Of a stretch of DNA of 64,000 nt, positions 28,951-52,900 are shown in pieces. Both the position numbers and the translations under genes were made by a program. How positions within the stretch are numbered: the first letter of the stretch is position 1; the number at the start of each line of letters is the position of its first letter. The DNA is from Candidatus Zixiibacteriota bacterium (GTDB lineage Bacteria > Zixibacteria > MSB-5A5 > GN15 > FEB-12). Under the pieces are notes generated by a model. It ran no database searches, was not told the origin of the DNA, and worked only from the letters and a program-made list of their open reading frames with translations. Location of the stretch: assembly GCA_036826635.1 (NCBI GenBank), contig DAISVY010000012.1, positions 9,170 through 73,169 on the forward strand, written 5' to 3'.

Positions 28951-28971
28951 TCGGACAAGGAGTTCCCGTTC

Positions 28972-31900: not shown

Positions 31901-32346
31901 GTTCCGACGATCCGTACGTTGGTTTCAACGCCTGGCGACCGCCCAGCAACTGGAGCGCCACCACCGACAACCAATTTTTCGGACGGTTTATCCATTCCGC
32001 TTATTACAAGAAATCAGGCGATGGTGACAGCAAAGCCGCGTGGAACACCCGGATAGACCAGGCGGGCGATTATGACGTCTACTACTACTGTGAGGGCCAG
32101 ACACACAGGCCACCGATGTTCCGGCGACCCGAACCGGGCAGACGTATGGATAGTGGCGAGAAACATTTCCTGGTATACCACGAAGACGGAGTAGAAGAAA
32201 TATCCCTGGACCTGAACGGTGTGGATGACGGCTGGAATCATCTGGGAACATTCAGACTGGCCGAAGGGGCCAACCGCATCGAACTGACGGATCAAAACGA
32301 ACTGGAATACGTCACCGCCGACGCCGTCAAGTGGGTCAGGCACTGA
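28972..32346 (+). CDS. ABC-2-type permease fused to an M1-aminopeptidase-like ectodomain (no HExxH) and a golvesin-like C-terminal domain
   Basis: 1124 aa. Residues 1 to about 300 contain 6-7 hydrophobic helices. From about residue 310 there is an M1 N-terminal beta-sandwich-like region (CNLEIEHEGTVITGKASLAAVN...LLFTLNPGLEV) and a catalytic-domain-like KLDLVEVPLQF, but no GAMEN or HExxH anywhere in the ORF. The last 140 aa or so (...AWNTRIDQAGDYDVYYY...GWNHLGTFRLAEGANRIELTD...VTADAVKWV) resemble golvesin/Xly C-terminal domains. Confidence 0.7.
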   Translation: MVDLWAVWCVARYEAKLLFRSWAFRIFTILGLTILVFMNIGLGTSIGSSPFFFHSFAGSLPLTNIKLLNIYQGIIAAFLATEFIKRDRRHDSTQVVLARSFSNVDYILGKVIGILAVFAVLNILVLAFGFVIHAFFSSSPFAWQPYILYPLLISLPTLVFIIGVSFVLITLLRSQAIVFVIMLGYSLLVLILLGPKLFCIFDSYAFYQPLVYSDFIGLGNTGEVLLLRGAYLLVGIGLISLTALTLKRLPQSQTGNVLAGALAVVCFATSLILGTVYMHDHYAQRDFREQLRNTSAAVVEIPTVMVTDCNLEIEHEGTVITGKASLAAVNHSQQPLDSLLFTLNPGLEVSKVTSATGDVAFTRNRHLLWIKPDAALLPDDSVALTIVYSGRVDSRYCYLDIDDERVEGYYQLWLYSIPKQYVQSETDCVQLTPEAGWYPIASLSPGTAFPAATTRDYAHYSLRVTVDEELTAISQGQTEIEQTDGNKTYTFRETSRLPQISLTIGRYDRREIVVDSIVYSLYTLPGHDFFSPYFDQITDTLPHLIRDLKNEYETALGFEYPYDKLDLVEVPLQFYSCRRLWTTAQEMVQPQIVFIPESGTLCAGVDFQQMKRRDEHRQERANQADSPLEIQARYFASFARTDLLGLEGSGWSVRNNPNIEPRMEIFPNFISYASQVSSARCPVLNYAFEAYFKDKVTVPEDPHWRSWLGLTDVERANLILQKQPLVNVISDSELEPGTIANVLEAKGGYLLTILEARVGEETFTSAIADFLTEHRFRNIHEEDLDAFAASLGQDNLAAIIDAWYRDTLLPGYLIDDIESYGVVDGERTRTQFKCRLTNPTTVDGVVALTLRYRMQRGGGMGWWMRMENDADFSQKLLIPAMSSRYVGLVLDDPLAEMTIDTYVSQNIPSLVSHHFRDQDLRQGAQPYSGDSLVSLGDTSPTEEGLVVDNEDSGFEIMSHTEESWLRTALLSLFGVKSSDDPYVGFNAWRPPSNWSATTDNQFFGRFIHSAYYKKSGDGDSKAAWNTRIDQAGDYDVYYYCEGQTHRPPMFRRPEPGRRMDSGEKHFLVYHEDGVEEISLDLNGVDDGWNHLGTFRLAEGANRIELTDQNELEYVTADAVKWVRH

Positions 32347-32361
32347 TACAAAAGGACCGCT

Positions 32362-33894
32362 ATGACACGTGTCTTCATTTCCGAAAAACGCCGGAGCGCA
32401 ACAGATCACACTTTCCAAAGTCAGAAGGGCCGGATCGGTGCGGTTTGCCTGTGGCTGCTTGTCGCAACAGCCTTTCTTGTCGTTCCCGGACGTCTGTCGG
32501 CCGAACAATTAACTCTCGAAGAGGCCCTTCAGATCGCCTTCGAGAAGAGCCCGACCATGCAACAGTCAGCCTTGAATCTGAAGATGAGCGAGAGTAACCT
32601 CAAGGCTCAGCAGGCGTCACTCAAATCGCAACTCAGTCTGACCCTCACCCCATACCAATACTCCAAGGACCGAGTTTTCAGCAACCTGGTTTCAGCCTAC
32701 AACTCCGAGGAACAAACCCGCAGCGCCGCCCAGTTTTCGATAGTCCAACCCATCAAGTGGACCGATGGCACCCTCAGCATATCGGAGACGGTCGACCGCC
32801 GGGAAGCCTCCAGCGATTATACCGGAAGCTACAAACAGACAAGTTACAGCAACACTCTCCAGTTGACCTTTTCGCAGCCGCTGTTCACCTACAACCGAAC
32901 GCAATTGAACCTGAAGGAACTCAAGCTGGCTCTCGAGAACGCCGAACTCAGTTTCGCGATCCAAAAGCTGAGCATCGAGAAACAAGTCACCCAAGAGTTT
33001 CTGGACCTCTACCTGAATCAGCGCAGTGTTGAAATTTCCCAGGAAGAACTGGACAATGCCAACGAGAGCTATGAGATAATCGAAAGCAAGGTCAACGCCG
33101 GGATTTCCGCTCCCGAAGAGTTGTATCAGGCCGAGCTTACCCGGGCCGACAGCCGGGGAACACTTCAGACCAATCGGACCACTCTGGATAACTCTCTCGA
33201 CAATTTCAAGATGTTGCTGGGCCTGCCGCTGGAAACCGAAATCGAGGCTATCGCCGACGTGCAGAAACTCCTGGTCGATGTCGACCTGGCCAAAGCCGTT
33301 AACCACGGCCTGCAATACCGCATGGAACTCCGCCAGCATGATATCGCCATTCAGAACGCCATGTGGGATCTTACACAAACCGGCGCCGACAACGAATTCA
33401 AGGGAGAGATCAACCTTTCTTACGGCCTGACCGGCACCGACGACGAATTCAACAACATCTACGATTCCCCCAGCCAGACGCATTCGGTGGAACTCAGTTT
33501 CAACATCCCGCTCTTCGACTGGGGCCAGAAAAGACATCGCTTAGATGCGAGCGAAGCCCAGGTGGAGAGCCAGCGTGTCTCGGCCGAGGAAGAACAAAAA
33601 CAAGTCATGTACGAAATTCGTGAGGCTTTCCGAAGCCTGCAGAATCAGCAAACGCAAATAGAAATCGCCGAGCAAAACGTTCGTAACGCCCGACTTACTT
33701 ATGAGATAAACCTCGAACGTTATCGTAACGGCGATCTGTCGTCCAAAGATATCAGCTTCTATCAAACCCAGCTTTCGCAGCAGCAGTTGAGCGAGGTACA
33801 GGCATTGATCAATTATAAAATATCCCTGCTTGACCTGAAGATTCGCTCGCTTTGGGATTTCGAAAACAACGTACCCGTATTGGGGCAGGAATAG
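32362..33894 (+). CDS. TolC-family outer-membrane efflux protein
   Basis: 510 aa. Signal-like N-terminus, LTLEEALQIAFEKSPTMQQ opening typical of OEP proteins, two coiled-coil/barrel repeats, and NLERYRNGDLSSKDI. Confidence 0.85.
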   Translation: MTRVFISEKRRSATDHTFQSQKGRIGAVCLWLLVATAFLVVPGRLSAEQLTLEEALQIAFEKSPTMQQSALNLKMSESNLKAQQASLKSQLSLTLTPYQYSKDRVFSNLVSAYNSEEQTRSAAQFSIVQPIKWTDGTLSISETVDRREASSDYTGSYKQTSYSNTLQLTFSQPLFTYNRTQLNLKELKLALENAELSFAIQKLSIEKQVTQEFLDLYLNQRSVEISQEELDNANESYEIIESKVNAGISAPEELYQAELTRADSRGTLQTNRTTLDNSLDNFKMLLGLPLETEIEAIADVQKLLVDVDLAKAVNHGLQYRMELRQHDIAIQNAMWDLTQTGADNEFKGEINLSYGLTGTDDEFNNIYDSPSQTHSVELSFNIPLFDWGQKRHRLDASEAQVESQRVSAEEEQKQVMYEIREAFRSLQNQQTQIEIAEQNVRNARLTYEINLERYRNGDLSSKDISFYQTQLSQQQLSEVQALINYKISLLDLKIRSLWDFENNVPVLGQE

Positions 33895-33904
33895 GAGAAA
33901 ACGC

Positions 33905-34963
33905 ATGAGACGCTGGCAAACTTCACTCATGCTGTGTGTTACCATAACCGTCATGGCGGGCTGCGGTGACCAGGGTCCGGATATTGACATCGAATCCTCG
34001 ATACCGGTGCGGGTCGAGGAAGTAACAGCCGGTCCCATGAAGGAGTATGCCTTCGCTACCGGCACCCTGGTAGCGGCCGAGGAAGCGACACTCGACGTCC
34101 AGCAATCCGGATACTACCATTTGCAAACCAACCCGCGCACCGGCACCACGTTTGCCATGGGAGATCAGGTCCGAAAAGGGGACACGATCATTACACTCCA
34201 AAACGCCGAATTCGAAAACCAGGTGGCGATTGATTCCAAGAAACTCAATCACGAAATCTCCGAACGTGAATTCGAAAAACAAAAAGGCCTCTACGAAAAA
34301 GGCGGCGTGACGATGCGTGAATTGGCCGACGCGGAACAGTCGTTTATCGATGCCCGCTACGCATACGAAAACGCCAAGCTGCAACTGGCCAAATTGCAGA
34401 TCGTGGCCCCGTTCGACGGCATACTGGTCGATCTGCCTTTCTACAGCCCGGGCCAGTTGGTTGAATCCGACGCTACCATGGCCCAGATAATGGATTACAG
34501 ACACCTGTATGCGGAAGTTACACTGCCGGGGAAAGAGATGGAGCGCGTCGAGCGTGGTCAGACGGCCATCGTCACCAACTACGCCGACCCGCTTGACACT
34601 CTCACCGGCCAGGTTACGCAGGTGTCACCGACACTGGACCCCGACAACCGCATGTTCAAACTGACGCTTGAGATAGATAACGACAGCCTCTCTTTCCGCC
34701 CCGGCATGTTCGCCAAAATAGATATAGTCGTCGAAGAACGCGATTCCACGCTGGTCATCCCCAAGGATATCATCCAGGAACGCCACGGCGCCCAAACCGT
34801 GTTCGTGGTAGACAAAGGGATAGCGGTCGAGCGACGTATCGAGACAGGCCTGTCCAACCGTGAGCAGGTAGAAGTTGTCAACGGTCTGGAAGCCGGTGAC
34901 CGACTCGTCGTTGAGGGTTTCGAGACCCTGCGTCATCGCTCCAAGGTCAAGGTAACCAAGTAA
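33905..34963 (+). CDS. Efflux RND periplasmic adaptor (membrane-fusion protein), lipoprotein
   Basis: Lipobox-like VTITVMAGC; alpha-hairpin region (YENAKLQLAKLQIVAPFDGIL); beta-barrel/MP domains (RPGMFAKIDIVV...VFVV...VERRIETG). AGGAG RBS. Confidence 0.85.
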   Translation: MRRWQTSLMLCVTITVMAGCGDQGPDIDIESSIPVRVEEVTAGPMKEYAFATGTLVAAEEATLDVQQSGYYHLQTNPRTGTTFAMGDQVRKGDTIITLQNAEFENQVAIDSKKLNHEISEREFEKQKGLYEKGGVTMRELADAEQSFIDARYAYENAKLQLAKLQIVAPFDGILVDLPFYSPGQLVESDATMAQIMDYRHLYAEVTLPGKEMERVERGQTAIVTNYADPLDTLTGQVTQVSPTLDPDNRMFKLTLEIDNDSLSFRPGMFAKIDIVVEERDSTLVIPKDIIQERHGAQTVFVVDKGIAVERRIETGLSNREQVEVVNGLEAGDRLVVEGFETLRHRSKVKVTK

Positions 34964-34982
34964 CCGACGGGCGGAATTCGAC

Positions 34983-37900
34983 ATGTATAAGCTGGCTCGC
35001 TTTTCCGTTAAATATCCCACCACCGTTCTCATGGTGGTCCTGGCCGTTATCCTTCTCGGTTACATTTCGTTCAGCCGTCTGGGCGTCGACCTCTTCCCCG
35101 ACCTCAACAGCCCTCGTCTTTTCATCGAGATCGAAGCCGGTGAACGCCCGCCGGAGGAAATGGAGCAGCAGTTCGTCACCCAGATGGAAGCGGTAGCGGC
35201 CCGCGGAAACGGCGTGATCAATGTTTCTTCCATCTCTCGGGTCGGACAGGCGCTTCTGACGGTTGAATACACGTGGCAGACCGACATGGACGCAGCTTTT
35301 CTGGACCTTCAGAAACTGGTCGCCGATTTCACTCAGAACAGCGAGGCCGACGAGATAACCGTCTCCGAACATGATCCCAACGCCGACCCCGTGGTGGTAG
35401 CGGTCTTTTCGCACCCTGAGATCGACGATCTGGACAAACTGCGCCAGACAGCCGAAAACATTATTCGCAACGAACTGATCCGTCTCCCGGACGTGGCGGC
35501 GGTGGATATCGTCGGGGCTCGTGAGCGGGAAGTTGAAATCCTGACCGATCCCTACACGCTGGAAGCACACGGATTGACCGCCTCGCAACTCGCTTCAACC
35601 ATAAGCAGCGCCAATCGCAACATGTCGGGCGGTTCAATCGTGGAAATGGGCATTCGTTATGTCCTGCGCGGGGTGGGAGAATTCACTTCCGAAGACGACA
35701 TCCGTAATCTGATCGTCGCCTACGAAACGCAAGAAGAGACCGGACAACCGCTCAAACGCATCCCCACGTATCTGCGGGAAGTGGCGGAAGTACACACCGT
35801 CCTGAGTGAACCGGAGAATATCGTACGCTATAACGGCCAACGCTGTCTGGCTCTTGAAGTGTTCCGGGAAGCACGGGCCAATACGGTCGATGCGGCTGCC
35901 AGTACCGTTGAGCAACTGGAAAAACTGGGGCGTTCGTTGCCGGGGTATGAACTTCGCGTGATTCAGAATCAGGCCGGTTTTATCAAGTCGGCCATCACCG
36001 AAGTCGAAGAAACCGGACTGATCGGCATTATCCTGGCCGTGTTGGTGTTGTACCTTTTTCTCCGTCGCATCGGCGTCACCGTGATCATCAGTCTGGCCAT
36101 TCCGATTTCCATTATAGCAACTTTCAACCTGATGTTCTTCAATGACCTTTCTCTGAACATCATGACTTTGGGAGGCCTGGCGCTTGGCGCCGGCATGCTT
36201 GTCGATAACGCCATTGTCGTAATGGAAAACGTGTTCCGACATCTCGAAGAAGGCAAACCGCTTACCGAAGCAGCCGTATTGGGAGCCGGCGAAGTCGGCG
36301 GAGCTATCACCAGTTCCACCCTTACCACCGTCGTCGTGTTTCTCCCCATCGTTTATCTGCACGGGGCGGCGGGCGAACTCTTCCGCGACCAGGCCTGGAC
36401 TGTCGCCTATTCGCTGATCTCTTCCCTCTTCGTGGCCCTGGCCGTGATTCCCATGCTCTGCTCGCGCCTGTTGAAACGCGGGAATCGAAGCGTCCCCACC
36501 AGTTCCGTCAGTTTCCCCGGCTATGGCAGATTCCTGCAAAAAATCTTAAAGCGACGCGGCTTAGTCATTACGGCGAGCCTGGTGCTGGTAATCTTAACCG
36601 CCCTGTTAATTCCGACCATCGGCAGCGAATTCATGCCTCGCGCCGACCAGGGCGATTTGTATATCAATCTGACCCTGCCCGAGGGTACCAGTCTCGAACG
36701 CACCGAGGGAACCGTGCGTAATCTCGAAGCCGTCATAGACCAGAAGTACGGCTCACAACTCAGCAATATATATTCGCGAGTGGGACCATCAGGGACATCG
36801 ACAAGTGAGCTTGAAGCGCTCAGTGACGAAAACAGCGCCGTGATGTACCTGACACCGGCTGTCGACAGCGACCTGCCCACCGACGAACTCGCCGCCGGCA
36901 TTGAACGCGAACTGGAAAAACTGCCCGACGTGGAATCGCAACTGACGGTGCAACAAACGGCCCTGCAATCAATCCTGGGGACCAGCTCCGCCCCTCTGGT
37001 AGTGGAGATAAAAGGCAAAGAACTCGACGAACTTTCGCGGCTGACCGACAGCGTATACGCCCGCCTGTCCCCGATGAGTGAACTGGCCAATATCGAGACG
37101 AGCTTCGAGCAGGGCCGCCCGGAAATCGATATCGTTGTGGATCGAACGGTGGCCACCCAATTTTCTCTCACCGTCGAAGAAGTGGGTTCGCAGGTACACG
37201 ATATTCTCTCCGGCACCGAAAGCGGAGAAATGGAAATCAATGGTGAATACGCCGACATCATTGTCCGCGGCCCGGATGTGTCACTAACCGAACTGGCCGG
37301 CATCATGCTGGAGACCTCATCGGATCGCCGTGTCAGACTGGACGAGGTAGCTCGACTGGTCCCGGCTGTCTCCCCCCGCGAAATCAACCGCAATAACCAG
37401 ACAAGGGTAGCCACGGTGAGCGCCAGCCTGGTTGGCGACGCGCCTTTCGACAAGGTAGCAACAGCCGTCAAAAAAGCCATCGCCGACGTGCCGCTCCCGC
37501 AGCAGTATTCGTTCGCCGTAACCGGCGAGGAAGAGCTTCGGCAGGAAGCCTTCGGCAATCTGGAATTCGCCCTGCTTCTGGCCGTCATACTGGTGTACAT
37601 GGTCATGGCCGCTCAGTTCGAATCGCTCCTGCACCCGTTCGTAATTCTTCTGACCATTCCGCTGGCCGGGGTGGGCGCCGTGCTGCTTCTGCTCATTCTC
37701 GGCATGCCGCTGAATATCATGTCTTTCATCGGTATGATCATGCTGGCCGGTATAGCCGTAAACGACTCGATCATCCTGGTGGACCGCATAAACCAAAATC
37801 GCCGGGGCGGACAGGATCTCGACAAGGCCATCATCAACGCCGGTCAGACGCGTATCCGACCGATCATCATGACCAGCGTTACGACTATTTTGGCGCTGCT

Positions 37901-38078
37901 GCCGCTCACCATCGGTCTCGGTGAAGGGGCATCATTGCGGGCTCCCATGGCGGTGGCGGTTATCGGCGGGCTGATCACTTCAACCGCCCTGACCCTGGCC
38001 GTCATACCGACGGTATATCACCTTCTGGCCGGTAAAGTACGGATTGAAACGGAGTCCACCACCCGGGCGCAGATATGA
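34983..38078 (+). CDS. RND (AcrB/HAE-type) efflux permease
   Basis: 1031 aa with a 12-TM, two-large-loop layout. Family blocks: ALGAGMLVDNAIVVMENV, MLAGIAVNDSIILVD, GQTRIRPIIMTSVTTILALLPL. Confidence 0.9.
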   Translation: MYKLARFSVKYPTTVLMVVLAVILLGYISFSRLGVDLFPDLNSPRLFIEIEAGERPPEEMEQQFVTQMEAVAARGNGVINVSSISRVGQALLTVEYTWQTDMDAAFLDLQKLVADFTQNSEADEITVSEHDPNADPVVVAVFSHPEIDDLDKLRQTAENIIRNELIRLPDVAAVDIVGAREREVEILTDPYTLEAHGLTASQLASTISSANRNMSGGSIVEMGIRYVLRGVGEFTSEDDIRNLIVAYETQEETGQPLKRIPTYLREVAEVHTVLSEPENIVRYNGQRCLALEVFREARANTVDAAASTVEQLEKLGRSLPGYELRVIQNQAGFIKSAITEVEETGLIGIILAVLVLYLFLRRIGVTVIISLAIPISIIATFNLMFFNDLSLNIMTLGGLALGAGMLVDNAIVVMENVFRHLEEGKPLTEAAVLGAGEVGGAITSSTLTTVVVFLPIVYLHGAAGELFRDQAWTVAYSLISSLFVALAVIPMLCSRLLKRGNRSVPTSSVSFPGYGRFLQKILKRRGLVITASLVLVILTALLIPTIGSEFMPRADQGDLYINLTLPEGTSLERTEGTVRNLEAVIDQKYGSQLSNIYSRVGPSGTSTSELEALSDENSAVMYLTPAVDSDLPTDELAAGIERELEKLPDVESQLTVQQTALQSILGTSSAPLVVEIKGKELDELSRLTDSVYARLSPMSELANIETSFEQGRPEIDIVVDRTVATQFSLTVEEVGSQVHDILSGTESGEMEINGEYADIIVRGPDVSLTELAGIMLETSSDRRVRLDEVARLVPAVSPREINRNNQTRVATVSASLVGDAPFDKVATAVKKAIADVPLPQQYSFAVTGEEELRQEAFGNLEFALLLAVILVYMVMAAQFESLLHPFVILLTIPLAGVGAVLLLLILGMPLNIMSFIGMIMLAGIAVNDSIILVDRINQNRRGGQDLDKAIINAGQTRIRPIIMTSVTTILALLPLTIGLGEGASLRAPMAVAVIGGLITSTALTLAVIPTVYHLLAGKVRIETESTTRAQI

Positions 38079-41000
38079 TTGAACGCATTATCAGACGGCC
38101 GATTCTCGTGGCCATGATAATCATCGGGCTTTGCCTGCTGGGTGTCGTTTCGTATACCAAACTGCCCGTGGAGCTCATCCCCTATACGGAACTGCCGATG
38201 CTGGTCGTGCAGGTAAGCACCGCGCTCGACGCCGATCCCGACTACGTGGAAAAACACGCCATCATCCCGCTCGAAAGTGCTATTGCCGGACTCGAAGATA
38301 TCGAGAGCATCGAATCGTACATCGATCGCCGTCGCGCCATTATCTTTGTTTATTACCATCAAAATTCCGATGCCAAATACGCCTATCTCAAGCTTCAGGA
38401 ACGGGTCGAAAGCGCCCGCTCGTTATTGGGTGACGACTTCTACGCCAGCGTCCTGAAAATCGACACCGAACAACTTTCCAATCAATTCATGTCACTGCAG
38501 GCCAGAGGCGAGGGTGATCTCGATCAGATACGGGAAGTGGTGGACGAAGAAATAACCGAAGAGCTGGAGAAAATAGACGGTATCGCCAGTGTTGCCGTCT
38601 ACGGCGGTCGACAGCACTCTATCGAAGTCGTTCTCGACGAAGGAGCATTGCGCTCGCACAATATCACCGCTTCCCAGGTTTCTTCCAAAATCAGCGGCGG
38701 GACTGCCGACCGCCAGTATCTGGGCCAGGCTATCGAAGGGAACAAGCAGTATTTCGTCAACCTGACCGCCGACTATACGGCTGTTCCGGCCCTTGAGGAT
38801 ATTGTCATCAAGGAAGAAGGTCCGGTTCTTCTCAAACACGTGGCCACGATCATCGACGGCGGCGCGGAAGAAGAGACAATTTCCCGCGTCAATGGTATGG
38901 AATCGATTTCCATTTCGCTTGTCCGTGATCAACAAGCCAACCTTCTCAGCCTTTCTCGCGAGACACGCCGGGAGATCGAGCACCTGAATAAAAAAGTGGC
39001 AGCCACCGGGGTGGAACTGGTCATTCAAAGCGACTCGGCCGAAGAGATCGAAGAGAATATAGAAGTCATCAAGATGCTGGCCCTTATAGGCGGCCTGCTG
39101 GCGGTGGTGGTTCTGTGGTTGTTTCTCCGCAATCTTCCCCTGGTTCTGGTAGTGGCGGCATCGATACCGATATCGGTACTCATATCGTTGAATTTCTTCT
39201 ACGCCTTCGACATCACGATCAACACCCTCACGCTGGTGGGTATAGCTATCGCCATCGGCATGCTCATCGACAACAGCGTCGTTGTCCTGGAGAACATTCA
39301 CCGCAAAGTGGCCCACGGCAATACCCCCTATCGGGCGGTCGTGGACGGAACCCACGAGGTCTGGCGGGCGGTATCGGCGGCCACTCTTACCACCGTCTGC
39401 GTCTTCGTCCCGTTCATCTTCTCCAACAGTTTTCTGGTTAAGACATTAGGCCGACACGTCGGCATATCGATTATCTCGACTCTCCTGGTGTCACTTGGCG
39501 TGGCTTTCGTCCTGATACCTCCCGCGACTTATTATTTCCTCTCTCGCAAGAAAGGCCGGGTGGAATCTTTCAACGTCATATCTCAGAAGAACCGACTACA
39601 GCAAATCTATACCCTGTTGCTCAAGTCGTGCCTGAGATTCCCGGCCCGAACACTGATTGTCAGTGTGGTGGTTTTCTTCGCCAGTGTGCTTATCTGTCTG
39701 GCCGTAAGTATCAACGTCCCCGAGGAAGTGGAACTGGACGAATTCAATCTCTACGCCACCATGCCGTCCGGGACAACACTGGCCACGGCCGACGAGCAGG
39801 TTAAAGAGATGGATCAGCGGTTGAGTGATATCGCCGAGCTCAAAGAACGTCGGGCCAACATCGAAGAAGACAACATCGTGTTTACGTTCGAGCTGAAGGA
39901 AGACTACGAAGATATCGCCCGGCGTAATCTCAGCGAGGTCAAGGACGAAGTGCTCGAGAAACTTTCCAACGCCTATCCCCTGATCGACTTCACATATGAG
40001 GAACCGGCTTCCGACGTCCGTTTCCGGGGCGGTGGCGGCGGCGGTCAGGGCATGCGCGGTTTCACTCGTTTGCTCGGTATCGGCACATCCGAGGAGAGCG
40101 TCGTTATTCGGGGACAGGATTTGGGGATGCTGCGCTCCATCGCCGAAGACGTTCGTTATAACCTCGATAACCTGGAAACCATCAAGAGCACGCAACTTTC
40201 GGTTACCGAACACGATCCCGGCATAGATCTGCTGCTTGATCAGTCGGCCATGCGTCATTTCAACGTCGGGTCGGCCAATATCATCGCCGAACTGTCCGGT
40301 TTTCAAAGCGAGGTTTCCTCGGGAGTAACGCTCAAACGCGGGACCGACGAAATAGATATCATCCTCAAAAAGAACGAACTGGAAGACAAAACTTCCGACG
40401 ATCTCAGAGAACTTGAGGTGGCCGGAGGCGACGGCGGCACGGTGCCGATAGTACAACTCGCACGATTCCTTTACACCAGCGGCACGTCCAACATCAACCG
40501 CGTAAATCAGGAAAAAGAAGTTTCGGTCGTTTATCGCTTTGAGGATGATGTCGAAAGTTCCAAACCGTTACTGGAAAACGCTCGCCTCACCGTGGACGAA
40601 ATAGCGGCCGGAATAAGCCCGCCGTCGGGAGTGGCCATCGAGGTGGTCCACGACGAGACCGATCTCTCGGAGTTCTATTTTCTCATTTTCGCGGCCGTGA
40701 TTCTTATATACATGATTCTGGCCTCGGTTTTCGAGTCTTTAGCTACCCCGCTGGTCATCATGTTCACTATCCCGCTGGCCACCATCGGTGCCCTTTGGGG
40801 ACTGATTCTGACCGGCAACTCGATCCTTAACGCCAATTCGATCATCGGCCTGTTTATCCTTCTTGGGGTGGTGGTCAACAACGGCATTATTCTGATCGAT
40901 TATTCGCGTCTGCTTCGCCGGCAACGCATGCGCCCGGGCAGGGCCTTGATCACCGCCGGACAGGCACGAATCAGACCGATCCTCATCACCGCCATCACCA

Positions 41001-42772
41001 CCGTGCTGGCCATGCTGCCACTGGCTATGGGCAAGGCCGAGTACGTGGCCAAAATCGGAGCACCTTTCGCTATCGTCGTCATTGGCGGACTGAGTTTCGG
41101 TACGCTGTTCACACTACTGTTAATTCCGACAGTATCCTTCGGAACCGATAATGCCATGGCCTGGTGGCGACAGTTGAGCGGCCGCAACAAAGCAATCCAG
41201 ACAGCGGTTCTGATCATCGGCGTATTCCTTATTTACAAGAATATCGACTCGTTCCTCTGGCAAATGGTCGACCTGATCGCTCTTCTGGCCGTCATCCCGG
41301 CCTTTACGTATTTCACCCAGACGAGCCTGCGACGAAGCCGTCGAGCCATTATCCCGACCGGCGATTCCATTACCATCACCATCCGCAACGTCGTCAAGGT
41401 CTACGACGATTTCTCCCGGTTCGTCCGCGAATGGCGCAAAGGGGAACGCCAGCATCAGCATGGCTCACCCGATGAACCGGTAAAGAACCGTGACCTGCTG
41501 CTTACCCGGATGTGGCAGCTTCCCCTGTATGTTTTCCTGTTCTACTTTACATATTTGTATCTGGAGAGCGGGTTCTGGATTTTCGTCTTCTCGGTCGTGT
41601 TTTACATCTATTCGCTTAATCTCTGGCGACCGCTGTTGCTGACGAGTGGAATATCAACCGGGAAGTGGCGATGGCCTCGAACACGCCGGTGGTTGTACAA
41701 ACTGATTTTCTGGCTGGGCCCGTTGCTCAATCTGATCTGGTTCAAACTTACCTGGTCCGGTCTGGCGCTGGTCATTGTTCTGGGATTTGCCTGGTATCTG
41801 GCGGCCTTGACTTACAACACTTCATCGCGCCTCTATCGGAAGCGGATCGATATCAATCGTCTTACCGGACGATTCGTCAGGATTCGCAAATTCTTCTATC
41901 GACTGGTCAAAGCCACGCCTCTGATCGGAAAACGCCGGGTTCCGTTTGTCGCTCTGAATCAGGTGTCAATGGAGATCGGCAGCGGCATGTTCGGACTTGT
42001 CGGTCCCAACGGGGCAGGCAAAACAACGCTCATGCGGGTTATTTGCGGGATTCTTCCGCCGGCTCGCGGCACGGTAAAAATCAATGGTATCGATCTGGTC
42101 AAACAACGCGAGGAACTTCAGTCGCTCATCGGCTACCTGCCACAGGAATTCGGCACCTACGAGAATATGACAGCTTACCAGTTTCTGGATTACCAGGCGC
42201 TTCTGAAAGGCCAGTGGAATGACCGACAGCGGCGGGAAACGGTAGAGAAAGCTATTCATTCGGTCCATCTCGAGGACAGCCGCAACACGAAAATAAAGTC
42301 TTTCTCCGGAGGCATGAAACAGCGCGTCGGTATCGCCCAGACGCTGTTGCACCTGCCGCGTATTATGGTGGTGGACGAACCGACCGCAGGACTGGACCCG
42401 CGCGAACGGATTCGGTTCAGGAACCTTCTGTCGGAACTGGCGCGGGACCGCGTTGTTATTTTCTCGACTCACATCATTGAAGACATCTCCAGCAGTTGCA
42501 GCCGACTGGCCGTGCTGGATGATGGTGCGGTCAAATTCCTGGGCTCTCCCAGGGAAATGGTGGAACTGACCAGAGGCTATGTCTGGCAGGCCCAGATAGC
42601 CCGGGAGCAGTTCGAAAAAGTACGGAACAACCTGCGGATAGTGCACCACATGCGCGACGGCGATCTTATCAGAGTAAGGGTACTCGCGTCCAAACAGCCG
42701 CTGACCGAAGCTATCGAGGTAACCCCGACGCTGGAGGATTCGTACCTTTGGTTACTGAATCAACAAGGGTAG
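38075..42772 (+). CDS. RND efflux permease fused C-terminally to extra TM helices and an ABC ATPase domain (hybrid RND-NBD protein)
   Basis: An uninterrupted 1565-codon ORF; ATGA overlap with the preceding RND gene. Residues 1 to about 1030 are a complete RND layout (IAIGMLIDNSVVVLENI, LLGVVVNNGIILID, GQARIRPILITAITTVLAMLPL). Residues about 1040-1095 add two more hydrophobic helices. Residues 1099-1565 form an ABC NBD: ITITIRNVVKVYDD, then a 176-aa insertion, then Walker A GPNGAGKTT (nt 42002-42028), YLPQE, SGGMKQRVGIA, MVVDEPTAGLD and STHII. Confidence 0.8.
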   Translation: MIERIIRRPILVAMIIIGLCLLGVVSYTKLPVELIPYTELPMLVVQVSTALDADPDYVEKHAIIPLESAIAGLEDIESIESYIDRRRAIIFVYYHQNSDAKYAYLKLQERVESARSLLGDDFYASVLKIDTEQLSNQFMSLQARGEGDLDQIREVVDEEITEELEKIDGIASVAVYGGRQHSIEVVLDEGALRSHNITASQVSSKISGGTADRQYLGQAIEGNKQYFVNLTADYTAVPALEDIVIKEEGPVLLKHVATIIDGGAEEETISRVNGMESISISLVRDQQANLLSLSRETRREIEHLNKKVAATGVELVIQSDSAEEIEENIEVIKMLALIGGLLAVVVLWLFLRNLPLVLVVAASIPISVLISLNFFYAFDITINTLTLVGIAIAIGMLIDNSVVVLENIHRKVAHGNTPYRAVVDGTHEVWRAVSAATLTTVCVFVPFIFSNSFLVKTLGRHVGISIISTLLVSLGVAFVLIPPATYYFLSRKKGRVESFNVISQKNRLQQIYTLLLKSCLRFPARTLIVSVVVFFASVLICLAVSINVPEEVELDEFNLYATMPSGTTLATADEQVKEMDQRLSDIAELKERRANIEEDNIVFTFELKEDYEDIARRNLSEVKDEVLEKLSNAYPLIDFTYEEPASDVRFRGGGGGGQGMRGFTRLLGIGTSEESVVIRGQDLGMLRSIAEDVRYNLDNLETIKSTQLSVTEHDPGIDLLLDQSAMRHFNVGSANIIAELSGFQSEVSSGVTLKRGTDEIDIILKKNELEDKTSDDLRELEVAGGDGGTVPIVQLARFLYTSGTSNINRVNQEKEVSVVYRFEDDVESSKPLLENARLTVDEIAAGISPPSGVAIEVVHDETDLSEFYFLIFAAVILIYMILASVFESLATPLVIMFTIPLATIGALWGLILTGNSILNANSIIGLFILLGVVVNNGIILIDYSRLLRRQRMRPGRALITAGQARIRPILITAITTVLAMLPLAMGKAEYVAKIGAPFAIVVIGGLSFGTLFTLLLIPTVSFGTDNAMAWWRQLSGRNKAIQTAVLIIGVFLIYKNIDSFLWQMVDLIALLAVIPAFTYFTQTSLRRSRRAIIPTGDSITITIRNVVKVYDDFSRFVREWRKGERQHQHGSPDEPVKNRDLLLTRMWQLPLYVFLFYFTYLYLESGFWIFVFSVVFYIYSLNLWRPLLLTSGISTGKWRWPRTRRWLYKLIFWLGPLLNLIWFKLTWSGLALVIVLGFAWYLAALTYNTSSRLYRKRIDINRLTGRFVRIRKFFYRLVKATPLIGKRRVPFVALNQVSMEIGSGMFGLVGPNGAGKTTLMRVICGILPPARGTVKINGIDLVKQREELQSLIGYLPQEFGTYENMTAYQFLDYQALLKGQWNDRQRRETVEKAIHSVHLEDSRNTKIKSFSGGMKQRVGIAQTLLHLPRIMVVDEPTAGLDPRERIRFRNLLSELARDRVVIFSTHIIEDISSSCSRLAVLDDGAVKFLGSPREMVELTRGYVWQAQIAREQFEKVRNNLRIVHHMRDGDLIRVRVLASKQPLTEAIEVTPTLEDSYLWLLNQQG

Positions 42773-42776
42773 CGTT

Positions 42777-43523
42777 ATGATACAGTCGACGACATCTTCC
42801 CCCGCCTCACAAACGAGCCTTCTCTCCGGTCTTCGGAGTCTGGTAGCTTTCTTCCGGTACAACGCCACTCACGTTTTCGCGGGGAAATTCATCTATTTCC
42901 TGGCCCTGGGGATCGGGATTTTCATTCTCGTGACGGTAATATACGTTTTGGACAGCAGCACCCCGCCGGATGCCGAGGCCATTTACTACTTTCTTTTGGT
43001 CCCGGGGGTATTGTTGATTTTCTATCCGTCGGCCTATTCCATTCAGAGCGACGTCGACAGCCGCATGATAGAAACGCTCTTCGGTATTCCCGACTACCGT
43101 TACAAAGTCTGGCTGGCCCGAAACATCACCATGTATCTGGTCGTGACCGCCCTGCTGTTTTTACTGGCGTTGTTTTGCCGACTGACGATGGCCGATTTTT
43201 CGATATGGTCAATGTCGTTTCAACTCCTGTTCCCGGTGGCGTTCATCGGCAGTCTGGCGTTTATGACCGCAACCATCACGCGCAGCGGCAACGGCACCGC
43301 CGTCATCATGGTGATAATCCTTCTTGTCTTCTGGATTGCCGCCGAACCGCTCGAGGGCAGCCGCTGGAATCTGTTTCACAACCCCTTCACTCAGGTGGAT
43401 CAGTTCGAGACTTTTTTGTGGGCGGAGACGACGCTTTATAACCGCATTTACCTGCTGACAGGTGCGGCTGTGGCCACCATGTTCGGTCTGCTGCGTCTGC
43501 AACGTCGCGAGAAATTGATCTGA
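42777..43523 (+). CDS. ABC-2-like six-TM permease
   Basis: 248 aa with about six hydrophobic helices. It starts 4 nt after the NBD-bearing gene, and its size and position match the membrane partner of an ABC-2 ATPase. I saw no diagnostic motif. Confidence 0.5.
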   Translation: MIQSTTSSPASQTSLLSGLRSLVAFFRYNATHVFAGKFIYFLALGIGIFILVTVIYVLDSSTPPDAEAIYYFLLVPGVLLIFYPSAYSIQSDVDSRMIETLFGIPDYRYKVWLARNITMYLVVTALLFLLALFCRLTMADFSIWSMSFQLLFPVAFIGSLAFMTATITRSGNGTAVIMVIILLVFWIAAEPLEGSRWNLFHNPFTQVDQFETFLWAETTLYNRIYLLTGAAVATMFGLLRLQRREKLI

Positions 43524-47921: not shown

Positions 47922-49923
47922 AGGAAAGCTCTCTCAGTTTCAGAATCTCGGTTTCGGTGCGTTTGATGTAATCCTGAATAGCCTCGTTATCGGGATCAAG
48001 TCGGGCGGCCTTTTTCCATGTGGCCACGGCTTCCTGCAATTGGTTCTTTCCGTACAGTTCGATACCGACAAACTTATAGGCGTTGATCAAGTACTTTCGC
48101 ACCGACTGATAATCCGGCGCCAGACGTTCGACCCTCTCCCAGTTGGCAATTGCTTCACCCAGACGGCCGTTCTCAAAGGCGTCCTGCGCCGCCTTGTTGA
48201 CTCCTTCTATTTCTTTGCGCAATTCATCGCTAAGCACCACGGCTGTTTTGGGCGCAACCGCAACCGTATCAACCGACGGCTTGTGCATATCGTCCAGAAT
48301 CCGACGGCGCAGATCCAGACACCATTGGTGATCCGGGAAAAGAACCAAGGCCGAATCGACCGTCGCCAGGGCGGTTTTGAAGTTCTCGCCTACGAAAGCC
48401 ACCGAGGCTGTTTCGCGCAGGTGTTCGAATTCAACCCGCTTGATAGCCAACCGGACACTGGCGTTTTCATCGGCGAATTGACGGAGGCTCCGAACGAGTT
48501 CAAGGGCATCATCCACGTATCCATAGCTCAGAAGCGAATCGATATCCCACAGGCGTTCTCTTATCAGCTCGTCTTTGGCCACCGTCCGTTCGATAGCGGC
48601 ATCAGCCTGTTCCAGAATCCTTTGAGCCTGTTCCGAATTGGAAACGTCAGACAAAGCCAGATCGGCAAAATGCCGAGCGCCGAGGTAGTCCTTCCGGGCC
48701 AGCCGTTCCTGCGCCGACTTCAGATTCTTATCAAAGCGACCGACTCGTTCGGCCCGGTCAAGCCGCTCATGGGCTGTAAGGACCATCTCATAAATGGCGG
48801 TCGTGTCCATGTCATTACCGCGCGCCAGGAACAAGGCCCGATCAAGCATGGTGGCGGCCTGCACCAGATCTCCTTTATCAAGAAGCTCCCGGCCACGATC
48901 CACCAACTGCCCGACTGTCTGACGGTTGCGCTCGCCCAGCCGCGTGTTCATCAAATCGTTGAATTGCGACTCTCTCTCCCGGGTCCGGGCCAGCCGCCGT
49001 TCATTTACGGGTGTTCCGAAAGAAGTCGTCAGAGTGAACATATGCAGACTGCCGAGATCACGATCCACAAGGGCGTAATCGAACCTTAGCAGCTTATACT
49101 GTAAACCGACACCGAACGACAACTTGCCCTCACGGACACCACCGCGCAGATGGAGAAGCTCTTTGAAACTATACTCGACCCCGACAGCCAACCGGGGATC
49201 GATATCTTCTATCTTGGTAAGTCGGGCACAGAGCGTAGCCTCCTGTCCCCAGTCGGCCCCGGGCACCAACCCAAGCGCAACCCCCAGATCGAAACTGGTC
49301 GGATACTCGACCGTCTCTTCCGACAGCTTCATCCCGGGTTTCAACAGATTGCGACCTTCCGCGGTCACGATAAGGTGATCAAAAAACGTCGAGCCAAAAG
49401 CAAACCTGCGACTGACCGACAAAGCCATACCGGGCGACGAAGTCGCCGTGTAATCGTCGATAGAATGATGCTCCAGAGACAGGCTCATCCCGACAGCATA
49501 ACCGGCGATGAATCGTCCATAGGCAAGATTAAATCCGAGCCGGTTGTCGTCGGTCTCCCCCAGCAGAAGATTACCGGCGTCTCGCTTTTCTATCCCGCTG
49601 ACACCGAGCCGGAAAATACCCAAACCGAAAACACCGTAGTCAAGCGTGGGAATGGCTATGCCCAGATACTGGTAAGCAACATCGGAATCATACAACGTAC
49701 TGTGGAAACCGCCGAATTCATACTGTTGGGCATCAGCCAGTCGCGAGGCATTCCAGAACGGGGCCGTAGTGGCGTCACTTACGGAAAGAGCCGCCCCGCC
49801 CAGTGAGAGCTCACGAGCCCCGGCACCGAAACTGAACGGTGATTGCGTACCACCGTCGTCGGCCGCCATAGAAACGCCGAAGCTCAGCAAGACCACGAGT
49901 ATGATTGATCCAAGTCGCCTCAT
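47908..49923 (-). CDS. Outer-membrane beta-barrel-like domain (PorQ/PorV-like pattern) fused to a C-terminal TPR array
   Basis: 671 aa. Signal peptide. Residues about 25-305 have GARELSLGGAALSV...APFWNASRLA and alternating beta-strand periodicity ending ...SLHMFTLTTSF. Residues about 330-671 are helical TPR-like repeats (GRLGEAIANWERVERLAPDYQ..., LQEAVATWKKAARLDPDN). ATGA overlap with the giant gene's stop. Confidence 0.6.
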   Translation of the reverse strand: MRRLGSIILVVLLSFGVSMAADDGGTQSPFSFGAGARELSLGGAALSVSDATTAPFWNASRLADAQQYEFGGFHSTLYDSDVAYQYLGIAIPTLDYGVFGLGIFRLGVSGIEKRDAGNLLLGETDDNRLGFNLAYGRFIAGYAVGMSLSLEHHSIDDYTATSSPGMALSVSRRFAFGSTFFDHLIVTAEGRNLLKPGMKLSEETVEYPTSFDLGVALGLVPGADWGQEATLCARLTKIEDIDPRLAVGVEYSFKELLHLRGGVREGKLSFGVGLQYKLLRFDYALVDRDLGSLHMFTLTTSFGTPVNERRLARTRERESQFNDLMNTRLGERNRQTVGQLVDRGRELLDKGDLVQAATMLDRALFLARGNDMDTTAIYEMVLTAHERLDRAERVGRFDKNLKSAQERLARKDYLGARHFADLALSDVSNSEQAQRILEQADAAIERTVAKDELIRERLWDIDSLLSYGYVDDALELVRSLRQFADENASVRLAIKRVEFEHLRETASVAFVGENFKTALATVDSALVLFPDHQWCLDLRRRILDDMHKPSVDTVAVAPKTAVVLSDELRKEIEGVNKAAQDAFENGRLGEAIANWERVERLAPDYQSVRKYLINAYKFVGIELYGKNQLQEAVATWKKAARLDPDNEAIQDYIKRTETEILKLRELSYEQQ

Positions 49924-52900
49924 CGTATTATCGCAATCTTTCGCTTATGCTCTTCGGTCCGTCCCGAAACATAATGCGCCGTTATCCGGCAGAAGTATGT
50001 CCCCGGAACAACATCACAACCCGCGTCATTGTCGCCCGACCAGATATCCGTCTGCTGCGACCCGGCTTCGCGGAAAGCATTCTCGGCTACCGTTTTCACC
50101 GCTTCGCCGGTAATCGAGAACAACTCAATATCCACATGGGCATCTTCGGACAACACGTACCCGATAGTGGTAGCACCGTCCTGAGCCGGGTTGAACGGGT
50201 TGGGATAATTCGTAAATGATTGCCCCAGGCTGGCCTCGGTGATCGATATCTCGGTACCGTACAGCGGGTATGACGTGCCGCTCTCCAAAACCGGATATAT
50301 CGCGGTTGCCATGTTTTTGTCCGCAATGTCGAACGAAGTGGAGTCCTCGAAGAGAATCAGATAATCACCCCGACGAGCGTCATCTCGTACGTCACAAACA
50401 ACGCTTACCGGCACCGTTCCCCCGGAAGAGACATCGTAACCGCCGTCGATGGTAAACAGCAAGGTATCACCGTTCAGAACCGAATCGGTGGCGACAACCT
50501 CGTCATCGAACACCAGATGTACGGCCCGGAAAATCTCCGCACCCGCACCGGCCTCAAGATGATCGCTGTATCGCCGGACAACTTTCCCCTGCCAGGAAGC
50601 GACGACCAGATCGCCTTCAAGCGTGGGGCTGTCATATTCCAGATCGCCGGAGAAAACGATCAATCCGGTTTGACCGGCACAAGTAAGTTGAACAGGGGCG
50701 GTAACGGTTGACAACACCGGTCGCCCGGCCGGCTGGAAGATATCCGTTTCTTCCGTTCTGAAGGGGAAACCGTCGGCACACCCGTCGGCCACCTCTATGC
50801 CGGGGCTCCGCGTAGTATCGCTGGCGTCACGCACCGTGATAGCCGGGGAAGCCGATATCTCAAGGACAAAATTATCATACGGCACGTCGGCCTCGATATC
50901 GCCGTACAAACCGACCGTGACACTGTCGCCGGGGTTAAGCAATACACCTTCGGTGCCCATTTCAAACGTAACCGCACCGATCAACGGCTCGATAAACGAC
51001 TGGTAAGTGACAGGAGCATCGCCAATCGATATTCCTACCCGGTCAAAGAGAAATTCCGGGCGCAACATAGTACCATCGGCATCAAGCACGGATACGAGAA
51101 TGTCACCGATACGCACCGATGAATAGTCCGTGGTGAACGGATAAACCAGCGCCAGTTCCATAAGAACCAGAGAATCAACCCCGCCGACAACGGCCGCAGA
51201 CAGCGGAGCCGTAACACAAAGCTGCGGTGCCCCGGCCGGATATCGCAATTGTGTCCAGCCGGTTCTAATGGGGAAAACATCACCGGTCGCAAGCATCGTA
51301 TCAGGAGAAACCTGAAGCGGTGAACCGGAGCTCAGATCGCGGACGGTGAAGCAGGTACTGTCGGTTATAAGCAGCGAAAAACCATCCAGGGAAGTCTCCT
51401 CGACCAGCGACAAAATAATCGTAAGCGAGTCAATCTCACCGGCGCTGAGTGTAAGCGGTGAAGTCAGGGATAAGTTAACATGGGTCGAGTCGGTCCTGAA
51501 ATCGGCCACATGTCCCACCACCACCTGTTGTCTGAGAGCACTGGCACTTTGCAAAATCGCCGCCGCTTCCACGGGATCACCGGCCAAATCGGCAAGGCAG
51601 AAAGACAGACCGGAAAGCTGAATCTGCGAGGTCCCGACATCGCCTCCGTGGCGGAACCTGAGCATAACGGCTTCGACTCCATTCTGCCCGTAGTTTGCGG
51701 TCGAACCGAGCAGCGATACGGAAGAAGTTGCCAGCGCCTGTGACGGATCGTCCAGACGGCACGAGGCCGTTCTGAGCGGAAAACTTACGGCCGGATTAAT
51801 AGAAACCGGCAACAGCGTATTAGCATCCACGAGCACGGTCGAGGCGGCACTCTCCAGAGCCAGGGCAAAACTGGAAGCCGACGCGGCACTGTCGATGCTC
51901 ACGATAAGCATAAGATTCGAAGACTTGCCCGGAGCAATTAGAACAGGCTCCGTGAAGGTCAGCAACAAATCGGACGTATGAGGAACTTCTTCGACCGCCG
52001 CCACTATAACATACCCGGCCGCTATTACCACCCGGCTAAGAGCTTCATCCGCCGCCTGGGGTGTACCAAAACCGTCTTCAACCCGCAGGACCAGACTGTC
52101 CAACCGCAAATCGGCTCCGGTTGCGGCCGTGTCCGGGTGCGTGATGGCTATACTCATCGGGAACACGCTTGACTGCCCCCGGGTGACCGAGGTCGGCATG
52201 GAATTGATAAGCTCGACCAGTACGTCCGCGGGGGATGTCTGGATATGGACCGCTGATGTCTGGATCACCGCGGATGAATCGGGCAAAGACTCGGCAACGG
52301 CACGCAACTGCCAGGATACTTCACCGGGCTGAAGAGCCGTATAATAGAAGACGAACTCGGCCGATGTACCGCTGGACACGGCGACCGGTCCGCTGGCGCT
52401 GCTGTCAAAAACGACCAGCTCGGAATCGCTTATTCCGACGACCTGAGCTTGCACATCGTCAATCTGAATCGGCAGCAGGTTAGTCGCGTTGAAATGCACC
52501 GCGATAGTCTGCCCCACCGAATAACTTTCCGCCAAAGGCTCATAACCGGCCCGCAGACTGGAATTAGATATCGTGAATCGGTTTTCACCGCTCAGAGCGG
52601 CGTCATGAGGTCCGTCGTTGGCCGAAGCATACTGACAGCCGTTTATCGGAATTTCACCCTGGAACTCCGCCCCGGGAGCGGCTGAAGCGGCCACATCGCC
52701 CACCACGAATAATACCGGCGGGGTACTGTTAACAGCCAGATCAAGCGTTGTTATGTTCCACTCTGTCCCGGTATAGGTAAACGTACCCAGCAACAGGTCA
52801 CTTGAACTCCAATCCTCACTGGCATCGTTGTCTTTCCATAATTCCAGCGAGGAAATATCACTGGTATCCGCATCCGCCAGATTGGCCAGCCTCAAAGATT

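Follow-up and report, generated by a model that had tools for sequence, protein, structure and literature searches.

How can an ATP-binding cassette (ABC) ATPase, which has one of the most thoroughly studied protein folds and is usually treated as a soluble cassette that contacts the membrane only via partner domains, carry membrane helices within its own fold? This question is raised by one gene in a 64,000-nucleotide stretch of DNA from Candidatus Zixiibacteriota bacterium (GenBank assembly GCA_036826635.1, contig DAISVY010000012.1, positions 9,170 to 73,169 of the forward strand; this whole stretch is the window, and its own numbering is used here). A single continuous open reading frame (ORF) at 38075-42772 on the + strand encodes 1565 amino acids, in which a resistance-nodulation-division (RND) permease is followed by two extra transmembrane (TM) helices, strand beta1 of an ABC ATPase, an insertion of 176 amino acids, and the remaining, intact ATPase. 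The first-pass annotation of the window had described the ATPase as split by an insertion with four membrane helices. The insertion is probably a conserved membrane module, made of two TM hairpins and basic cytoplasmic helices, that lies in the beta1-beta2 turn of an intact ATPase and acts as a membrane anchor or docking surface.

Strand beta1 and the insertion in the fused ATPase

The fusion protein and its reference ATPase are laid out as follows.

38075-41131, + strand: RND permease domain, residues 1-1019 (Pfam ACR_tran, E 1e-153; NCBIfam RND_permease_2)
41195-41335, + strand: extra TM hairpin TM13-TM14 after the RND domain, residues 1041-1087 (AlphaFold2 helices at model positions 2-17 and 21-48; predicted local distance difference test, pLDDT, 91-96)
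41369-41410, + strand: ATPase strand beta1 with the A-loop (ITITIRNVVKVYDD), residues 1099-1112, including Lys1108 and Tyr1110 (the latter at 41402-41404)
41411-41938, + strand: insertion in the beta1-beta2 turn, residues 1113-1288, 176 amino acids
41939-42772, + strand: remaining ABC ATPase and C-terminal domain, residues 1289-1565 (Pfam ABC_tran, E 9e-31)
28039-28950, + strand: reference ATPase, an unfused paralog without the insertion

The RND domain has the full-length 12-TM architecture and aligns to profile positions 1-1015 of the 1021 in ACR_tran (PF00873). The ATPase is recognized only from its second strand onward. Pfam ABC_tran covers residues 1294-1438, beginning at profile position 1, which is beta2, and the NCBIfam ATPase models match only from their positions 14-17, indicating that beta1 has been displaced. 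The span given in the first-pass annotation for the insertion corresponds exactly to residues 1113-1288 in the translation, and the four hydrophobic strings that it quoted are all found there as written. Its placement of the insertion between the first strand and the Walker A region also stands, and can be narrowed to the turn of the beta1-beta2 hairpin: the insertion begins two residues past the A-loop Tyr1110 and ends at beta2, with Walker A about 20 residues beyond. Tyr1110 provides the A-loop aromatic of an ABC ATPase, but the hairpin is not contiguous, and this residue sits 200 residues ahead of Walker A, compared to about 25 in a contiguous beta1-beta2 hairpin.

The homology of ITITIRNVVKVYDD to strand beta1 of a nucleotide-binding domain (NBD) is supported by alignments of a spliced construct, the sequence with residues 1113-1288 removed. 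In a HMMER search against all PDB chains, the construct aligns without a gap across the junction to ABCA1 NBD1 (alignment 'tititirnvvkvyddvpfvalnqvsm'), whose beta1 is nearly identical to that of the fusion (comparison with 'IRNVVKVYDD'). A BLASTP alignment to E. coli LptB also crosses the junction, and places Tyr1110 on Tyr13, the residue that stacks on adenine. The alignment to the unfused paralog starts at paralog residue 1, crosses the junction without a gap, sets Tyr1110 against a Tyr of the paralog and covers 292 amino acids at 41% identity, in agreement with the by-eye comparison of the first-pass annotation.

Conservation was followed in an alignment of 121 sequences, in which the window protein was joined by the 120 relatives that matched it best (47-62% identity). 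Of the 121, 120 retain Lys1108 and 120 retain Tyr1110, and the K-x-Y motif persists in relatives with just 23-31% identity in the beta1-insertion region. An AlphaFold2 model of residues 1040-1565, built from the same alignment (mean pLDDT 85.2; predicted TM-score, pTM, 0.74), has a 10-residue strand at model positions 62-71 (residues 1101-1110; pLDDT about 93). All the remaining strands of the model fall within the ATPase, so the strand partners of beta1 would have to be ATPase strands. A mean-field coevolution analysis, which is noisy (effective number of sequences, Meff, about 122-131), lends weak support to the pairing, since pairs 63-261 and 61-261 recur in both runs and agree with the register of an antiparallel beta1-beta2 pair.

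The rest of the ATPase retains its catalytic motifs. Walker A (G1310-T1318, GPNGAGKTT), Q1357, the signature (S1411-G1413, FSGGMKQR), Walker B (D1434-E1435) and H1466 are invariant in the 121 sequences, and by these motifs the ATPase should be an active enzyme. Foldseek searches of the PDB return TM_1403, NosF, LptB and ABCA proteins, and recover only the ATPase body.

The insertion itself has the following parts.

41417-41464, + strand: basic cytoplasmic helix aH1, residues 1115-1130, 'RFVREWRKGE' (AlphaFold2 helix 76-91)
41513-41563, + strand: predicted TM helix a, residues 1147-1163, WQLPLYVFLFYFTYLYL (AlphaFold2 helix 109-123, pLDDT about 95)
41570-41626, + strand: predicted TM helix b, residues 1166-1184 (AlphaFold2 helix 127-150)
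41690-41743, + strand: predicted TM helix c, residues 1206-1223 (AlphaFold2 helix 162-187)
41753-41815, + strand: predicted TM helix d, residues 1227-1247 (AlphaFold2 helix 191-216, pLDDT about 92)
41876-41914, + strand: basic helix aH3, residues 1268-1280 (AlphaFold2 helix 229-241), followed by 'PLIGKRR' leading into beta2

The insertion has no match in Pfam or NCBIfam. It is present in every sequence aligned or examined, with a length of 169-193 amino acids across the 121, and beta1 and the insertion occur together in 120 of the 120 listed homologs, where the hydrophobic segments are gap-free and the loops have a few short gaps. Both persist even in the relatives that have diverged most, with 23-31% identity in the region. 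In aH1, residues R79, E80, W81 and G84 (model numbering) are conserved at 90% or more; Trp1213 in helix c is invariant and Pro1216 is conserved in 118 of the 121; and Gly1265 and Pro1282 are invariant around aH3. Helices a and b form a hairpin via the 3-residue turn LES. Helix a has a family mean Kyte-Doolittle hydropathy of 1.33, with 0.07 Lys+Arg per sequence and 42% aromatic residues, and helix d has a mean of 2.36 with 0.04 Lys+Arg. A Lys/Arg-rich cytoplasmic loop lies ahead of helix c (5.2 Lys+Arg versus 1.3 Asp+Glu per sequence), and the stretch from helix d to beta2 carries 11.9 Lys+Arg. From the hydropathy, the charge bias and the structure model, the insertion is predicted to consist of four membrane-spanning helices with both ends in the cytoplasm.

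Distribution, split genes and sister fusions

When residues 1040-1565 were used as a query, more than 120 proteins matched along its full length, many of them with both ACR_tran and ABC_tran domains, from Zixibacteria, Aminicenantes, Bacteroidales, Krumholzibacteria, Latescibacterota and Spirochaetales bins. The NCBI label for proteins of this family is 'efflux RND transporter permease subunit'. An exhaustive HMMER scan with beta1 and the insertion alone (198 amino acids) against 1.84 billion cluster representatives gave 72 matches at E <= 0.001. The full-length ones are all fusions of 1550-1590 amino acids, matched at about residues 1097-1295, and the others are shorter or partial proteins. 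Judged by sequence, the insertion module appears confined to this RND::ABC fusion family, which spans Bacteroidota, Zixibacteria, Latescibacterota and Aminicenantes. A scan with the whole C-terminal alignment located 23 reference-genome loci that carry the module; a genome scan with the insertion-only alignment failed, as no stretch is conserved enough. The cultured carriers include Draconibacterium mangrovi, Prolixibacter bellariivorans ATCC BAA-1284, Parabacteroides massiliensis and Marivirga tractuosa. A neighbour-joining tree built on the ATPase body recovers the insertion-bearing family as monophyletic in 100 of 100 bootstraps, which points to a single origin.

Some relatives are split variants (L001, 4679-9452; L022, 4758-9452), in which a 1101-amino acid RND gene is followed 16 nt later by a 483-amino acid gene. 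The product of the second gene opens at beta1, with '...EPLRIKVQNVVKIYDKD', and goes on through the four-TM insertion to the ATPase. By length and alignment, TM13-TM14 remains on the RND gene. The split variants argue for docking between TM segments, since here the ATPase is not covalently linked to the RND protein and still retains the module.

Sister RND::ABC fusions of 1437 and 1455 amino acids occur in uncultured bacteria (L027, 4518-8831; L032, ORF from about 4485). These join an RND permease to a closely related ATPase with an insertion at the same position, but their beta1 ('LQIEIDHLTRIYQP' and 'LVIVTKNLTRIYAP') is parted from beta2 by a stretch of just about 45-50 residues that lacks hydrophobic helices. 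Their partner is a 922-amino acid protein with hydrophobic N-terminal segments, encoded between the two RND genes, in place of the small six-helix protein found next to the window fusion. It matches an ABC-2-permease/M1-like protein of the window (see below). In the best tree the sister fusions fall together with the TM-insertion family, with support of only 40 of 100 bootstraps. Since they share the insertion position, the beta1-beta2 loop has received an insertion at least two times in RND-fused ATPases. It is possible that the module arose stepwise, with a short insert first and the TM hairpins later.

Partner proteins and alternative readings

The fusion is the fourth gene of the operon 32362-43523 (+ strand), which has the order OMF-MFP-RND1-RND2::ABC-6TM. 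Its other members are listed here.

32362-33894, + strand: outer-membrane factor (OMF; NCBIfam/Pfam)
33905-34963, + strand: periplasmic adaptor (MFP; NCBIfam/Pfam)
34983-38078, + strand: unfused RND1 (NCBIfam/Pfam)
42777-43523, + strand: six-helix membrane protein of 248 amino acids (6TM; AlphaFold2 pLDDT 88.8, pTM 0.84)

This order is conserved across related loci, with exceptions for the OMF, where the fetched flank ends, where it is undetected (Draconibacterium mangrovi) or where it is replaced (one Latescibacterota locus). The RND1 stop and the fusion start overlap by 4 nt (38075-38078) and the 6TM gene starts 5 nt past the fusion stop, suggesting translational coupling of the three membrane components. 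The 6TM protein has no Pfam or NCBIfam match. It has 3438 detected homologs, and all 120 of the 120 listed are unnamed or 'hypothetical'. The best PDB folds for its model are type V (ABC-2) domains, namely PmtCD (TM-score 0.60), ABCG2, ABCG25, TarG, NosY and Wzm; the TM-scores of 0.55-0.62 come with weak E-values (5e-3 and above), and the list is consistent. The 6TM gene lies directly downstream of the fusion in every locus that extends far enough. From this model, the 6TM protein, and not the insertion, is likely the transport domain served by the ATPase, and its family looks like a group of ABC-2 permeases that has gone unannotated.

The two RND proteins differ from AcrB in their proton-relay residues. 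The AcrB/HAE1-type set consists of Asp-Asp in TM4, Lys in TM10 and Arg in TM11. In the fused RND2 the TM10 Lys of AcrB and MdtB is Asn in an alignment to solved RND pumps including MdtB (about 40970-40990), TM4 reads 'IDNS' by eye (39290-39300), with 'DN' where AcrB has Asp-Asp, and the TM11 Arg is kept. RND1, read by eye, has the same pattern, with 'DN' in TM4 and Asn in TM10. The altered residues are not evidence specific to the fusion, since the unfused RND1 shares them as far as examined.

A second ABC pair lies directly upstream of the efflux operon (28039-32346, + strand). It consists of the insertion-free ATPase used here as the reference and a 1124-amino acid protein with weak Peptidase_M1 and Golvesin_C matches, which might combine an ABC-2 permease with an M1-like ectodomain. 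Partners of this ABC-2-permease/M1-like kind also accompany the sister fusions and lie beside a Latescibacterota locus (L025). The window also contains a 3192-amino acid ORF at 49920-59498 on the - strand.

The identity of the 6TM protein bears on whether the TM13-14 hairpin and helices a-d could instead form the ABC transport pathway themselves, as a membrane domain interrupted by beta1, with the 6TM protein as an accessory. The count is suggestive, since two plus four helices make six, as in a type V membrane domain, and the helices are strongly conserved, including the invariant Trp and near-invariant Pro of helix c. Even so, this reading is distinctly unlikely. It is the downstream 6TM protein, not the insertion, that models as a type V domain and that is always there where the locus extends. 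Including the TM region in the Foldseek comparison with ABCA transporters hardly lifts the TM-score, from about 0.41 to 0.43, the hairpin turns, at 3-5 residues, expose nothing periplasmic, and the sister fusions pair a non-TM insert with a separate ABC-2 permease.

The membrane-spanning character of the segments is indicated by several features. The best 19-mers on the Wimley-White octanol scale score -15.6 kcal/mol (residues 1166-1184) and -13.8 kcal/mol (residues 1210-1228), and the hydrophobic residues form two continuous blocks, 1147-1187 and 1207-1245; residues 1041-1087 before beta1 form a third such hairpin, in which TM13-TM14 have family mean hydropathies of 1.7-1.8. Over the 121 sequences the four segments of the insertion average 1.3-2.4 on the Kyte-Doolittle scale and contain only 0.04-0.4 Lys+Arg per sequence. 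The a-b turn (3 residues) has 0.5 Lys+Arg and the c-d turn (5 residues) has 1.1, compared to 9.4, 5.2 and 11.9 in the three predicted cytoplasmic stretches, which is the positive-inside pattern expected with both ends of the insertion in the cytoplasm. The AlphaFold2 helices of the insertion have pLDDT mostly above 90. The TM13-TM14 hairpin is predicted to bring the chain back to the cytoplasm, and because the RND permease ends in the cytoplasm and the number of crossings is even (two plus four), beta1 and the ATPase body would stay on that side.

The same helices might be read as a helical domain that does not span the membrane but sits at its cytoplasmic face, with a peripheral, interfacial or lipid-binding character. 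Helix a is short, and helices a-c contain 29-42% Phe, Trp and Tyr, as interfacial helices often do. This is very unlikely given four segments of 17-19 almost uncharged residues, their tight turns, the strong positive-inside pattern over the 121 sequences, octanol-scale energies of -14 to -16 kcal/mol, and long continuous AlphaFold2 helices of 15-26 residues. The segments behave like TM helices across the family, as the first-pass annotation had supposed for the window protein, and the insertion is present in all the aligned homologous fusions.

A further reading, that of a plain TM linker, would make the beta1-like peptide a chance resemblance. The region would then amount to six TM helices that connect the RND domain with an ATPase devoid of beta1. 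The Pfam and NCBIfam models, matching only from beta2 onward, would fit such a protein, and the strand is short (about 14 residues). Its contribution was measured with a hidden Markov model (HMM) built from the 38 closest insertion-free ATPases of reference genomes, against which spliced versions of the 121 family members were scored. With the real beta1 the alignment begins at HMM position 2, compared to positions 15-17 for the controls (a shuffled beta1, none, or the 17 residues natively preceding beta2). The real beta1 is worth only about 6-7 bits, a gain of 5.8-7.0 over the controls, but the gain is positive in 121 of 121 members. The K-x-Y motif is near-invariant even at 23-31% regional identity, the junction alignments to three independent ATPases are gapless and put the Tyr on a known A-loop position, the AlphaFold2 strand is confident, and the split genes begin at beta1. 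The sister fusions also retain beta1 ('LTRIY') before a different, shorter insert. Chance resemblance is thereby largely refuted and hardly credible, and the assignment of ITITIRNVVKVYDD to beta1, on which the first-pass annotation had depended, holds.

That a mis-assembly, frameshift or read-through fused separate genes can be dismissed: the contig is of metagenome type and split forms of the locus exist, but the reading frame is unbroken, the identical 1565-amino acid protein is called in public records, and the artefact is ruled out by the recurrence of the same architecture in independent genomes, with full-length homologs of 1550-1590 amino acids in many of them, including cultured isolates and a complete chromosome (among the genomes are those of Marivirga tractuosa, Prolixibacter bellariivorans, Draconibacterium mangrovi and Parabacteroides massiliensis).

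Known systems and a possible mechanism

The closest sequence and fold matches to the ATPase body are the NBDs of ABCA1/3/4/7 together with TM_1403, NosF and DrrA/GldA-like proteins. In all of these ABCA-type and bacterial ABC-2-type ATPases, beta1 and beta2 form an uninterrupted hairpin, and none is fused to an RND permease. Insertions at this site are known from CFTR and from the ABCG proteins. In CFTR the A-loop aromatic presumably lies immediately before the regulatory insertion, as Tyr1110 lies before the module in the fusion. The CFTR regulatory insertion ('S1-S2 loop', about residues 404-435, about 32-35 amino acids) is in the beta1-beta2 loop of NBD1 (PMC7350234), and is the only other insertion described at the location of the ABCG loop (PMC5065228). 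It resembles the module in occupying the same fold site, as a lineage-specific addition to a canonical ATPase (PMC7350234, PMC5065228). However, the CFTR insertion is soluble, mobile and phosphorylatable, has no TM helices, and its deletion is stabilising, whereas the module here is 169-193 amino acids long and highly conserved, and has four predicted membrane crossings. The beta1-beta2 loops of ABCG2, ABCG5 and ABCG8 have 20, 20 and 40 residues, respectively (PMC5065228). They share the site, the class (ABC-2/type V) and the A-loop with the fusion, but at 20-40 residues they are disordered in crystal structures and are not membrane-embedded. The ABCG loop has been modelled near the entry of the substrate cavity (PMC5065228), which makes it geometrically plausible for an insertion there to reach the membrane. 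The module thus has the position of the CFTR and ABCG loops without being a short, soluble, mobile loop of that type.

In literature searches, no paper was found that reports TM helices within an ABC ATPase or describes an RND-ABC fusion. The first-pass annotation had regarded the feature as unfamiliar among ABC families. This applies to the TM content and not to the insertion site, which is known to be permissive; the TM content and the RND-fused context appear unprecedented. Among RND systems, the MdtABC-type pumps likewise have an OMF, an adaptor and two paralogous RND genes, and MdtB is among the best solved matches to the C-terminal RND segment. The difference is that one RND subunit here bears an ABC ATPase.

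In the proposed mechanism, the chain would exit the RND domain in the cytoplasm, make the TM13-14 hairpin and lay down beta1 in the cytoplasm. It would then cross the membrane four times, re-enter the cytoplasm and form the remaining ATPase, with beta1 docking back on its sheet. The module would be a membrane anchor or docking surface, holding the ATPase beside TM13-14 and the downstream type V domain, and this anchoring may assemble an RND-ABC supercomplex. ATP-driven motion might be passed to the membrane partners, or the membrane partners might gate ATP binding. Because the insertion starts at the A-loop, nucleotide occupancy and helices a-d could influence each other. The role suggested in the first-pass annotation, that the insertion could tether or gate the ATPase, is plausible.

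Several points weigh against the proposed arrangement. Helix a is only 15-17 amino acids long, and the hairpins could be re-entrant instead of spanning. The docking of beta1 on beta2 is deduced from the DSSP strand assignment of the model and from the two noisy coevolution pairs. The coevolution of TM14 with TM helix b is weak and inconsistent in register, and packing of the module on TM13-14 or the 6TM protein is putative. RND pumps assemble as trimers and ABC ATPases as dimers, which makes the stoichiometry of any supercomplex hard to match. The pump MdtB2C contains two MdtB subunits and one MdtC. A heterotrimer of one RND1 and two RND2::ABC subunits, like MdtB2C, would be one way to reconcile a trimer with a dimer.

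A more far-reaching proposal is a hybrid pump with the insertion as its mechanical link, in which ATP binding and hydrolysis at the A-loop would reach the RND TM domain via helices a-d and TM13-14, and ATP would drive or gate efflux by a tripartite RND system, replacing or adding to the proton gradient. The altered proton-relay residues described above bear on this proposal. It is rather unlikely on the present evidence. If true, one polypeptide would for the first time couple the machinery of primary and secondary transport.

If four membrane helices indeed lie inside the cassette, starting at the A-loop, the first hairpin of the ABC fold can accommodate an entire membrane domain. Such an arrangement would also point to a way for the nucleotide site and the membrane to communicate without the usual coupling helices. 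The fusion and its conserved operon raise the question of whether ATP can power or control an RND-type tripartite pump, and the cultured Bacteroidota members of the family make genetics, biochemistry and cryo-electron microscopy feasible.

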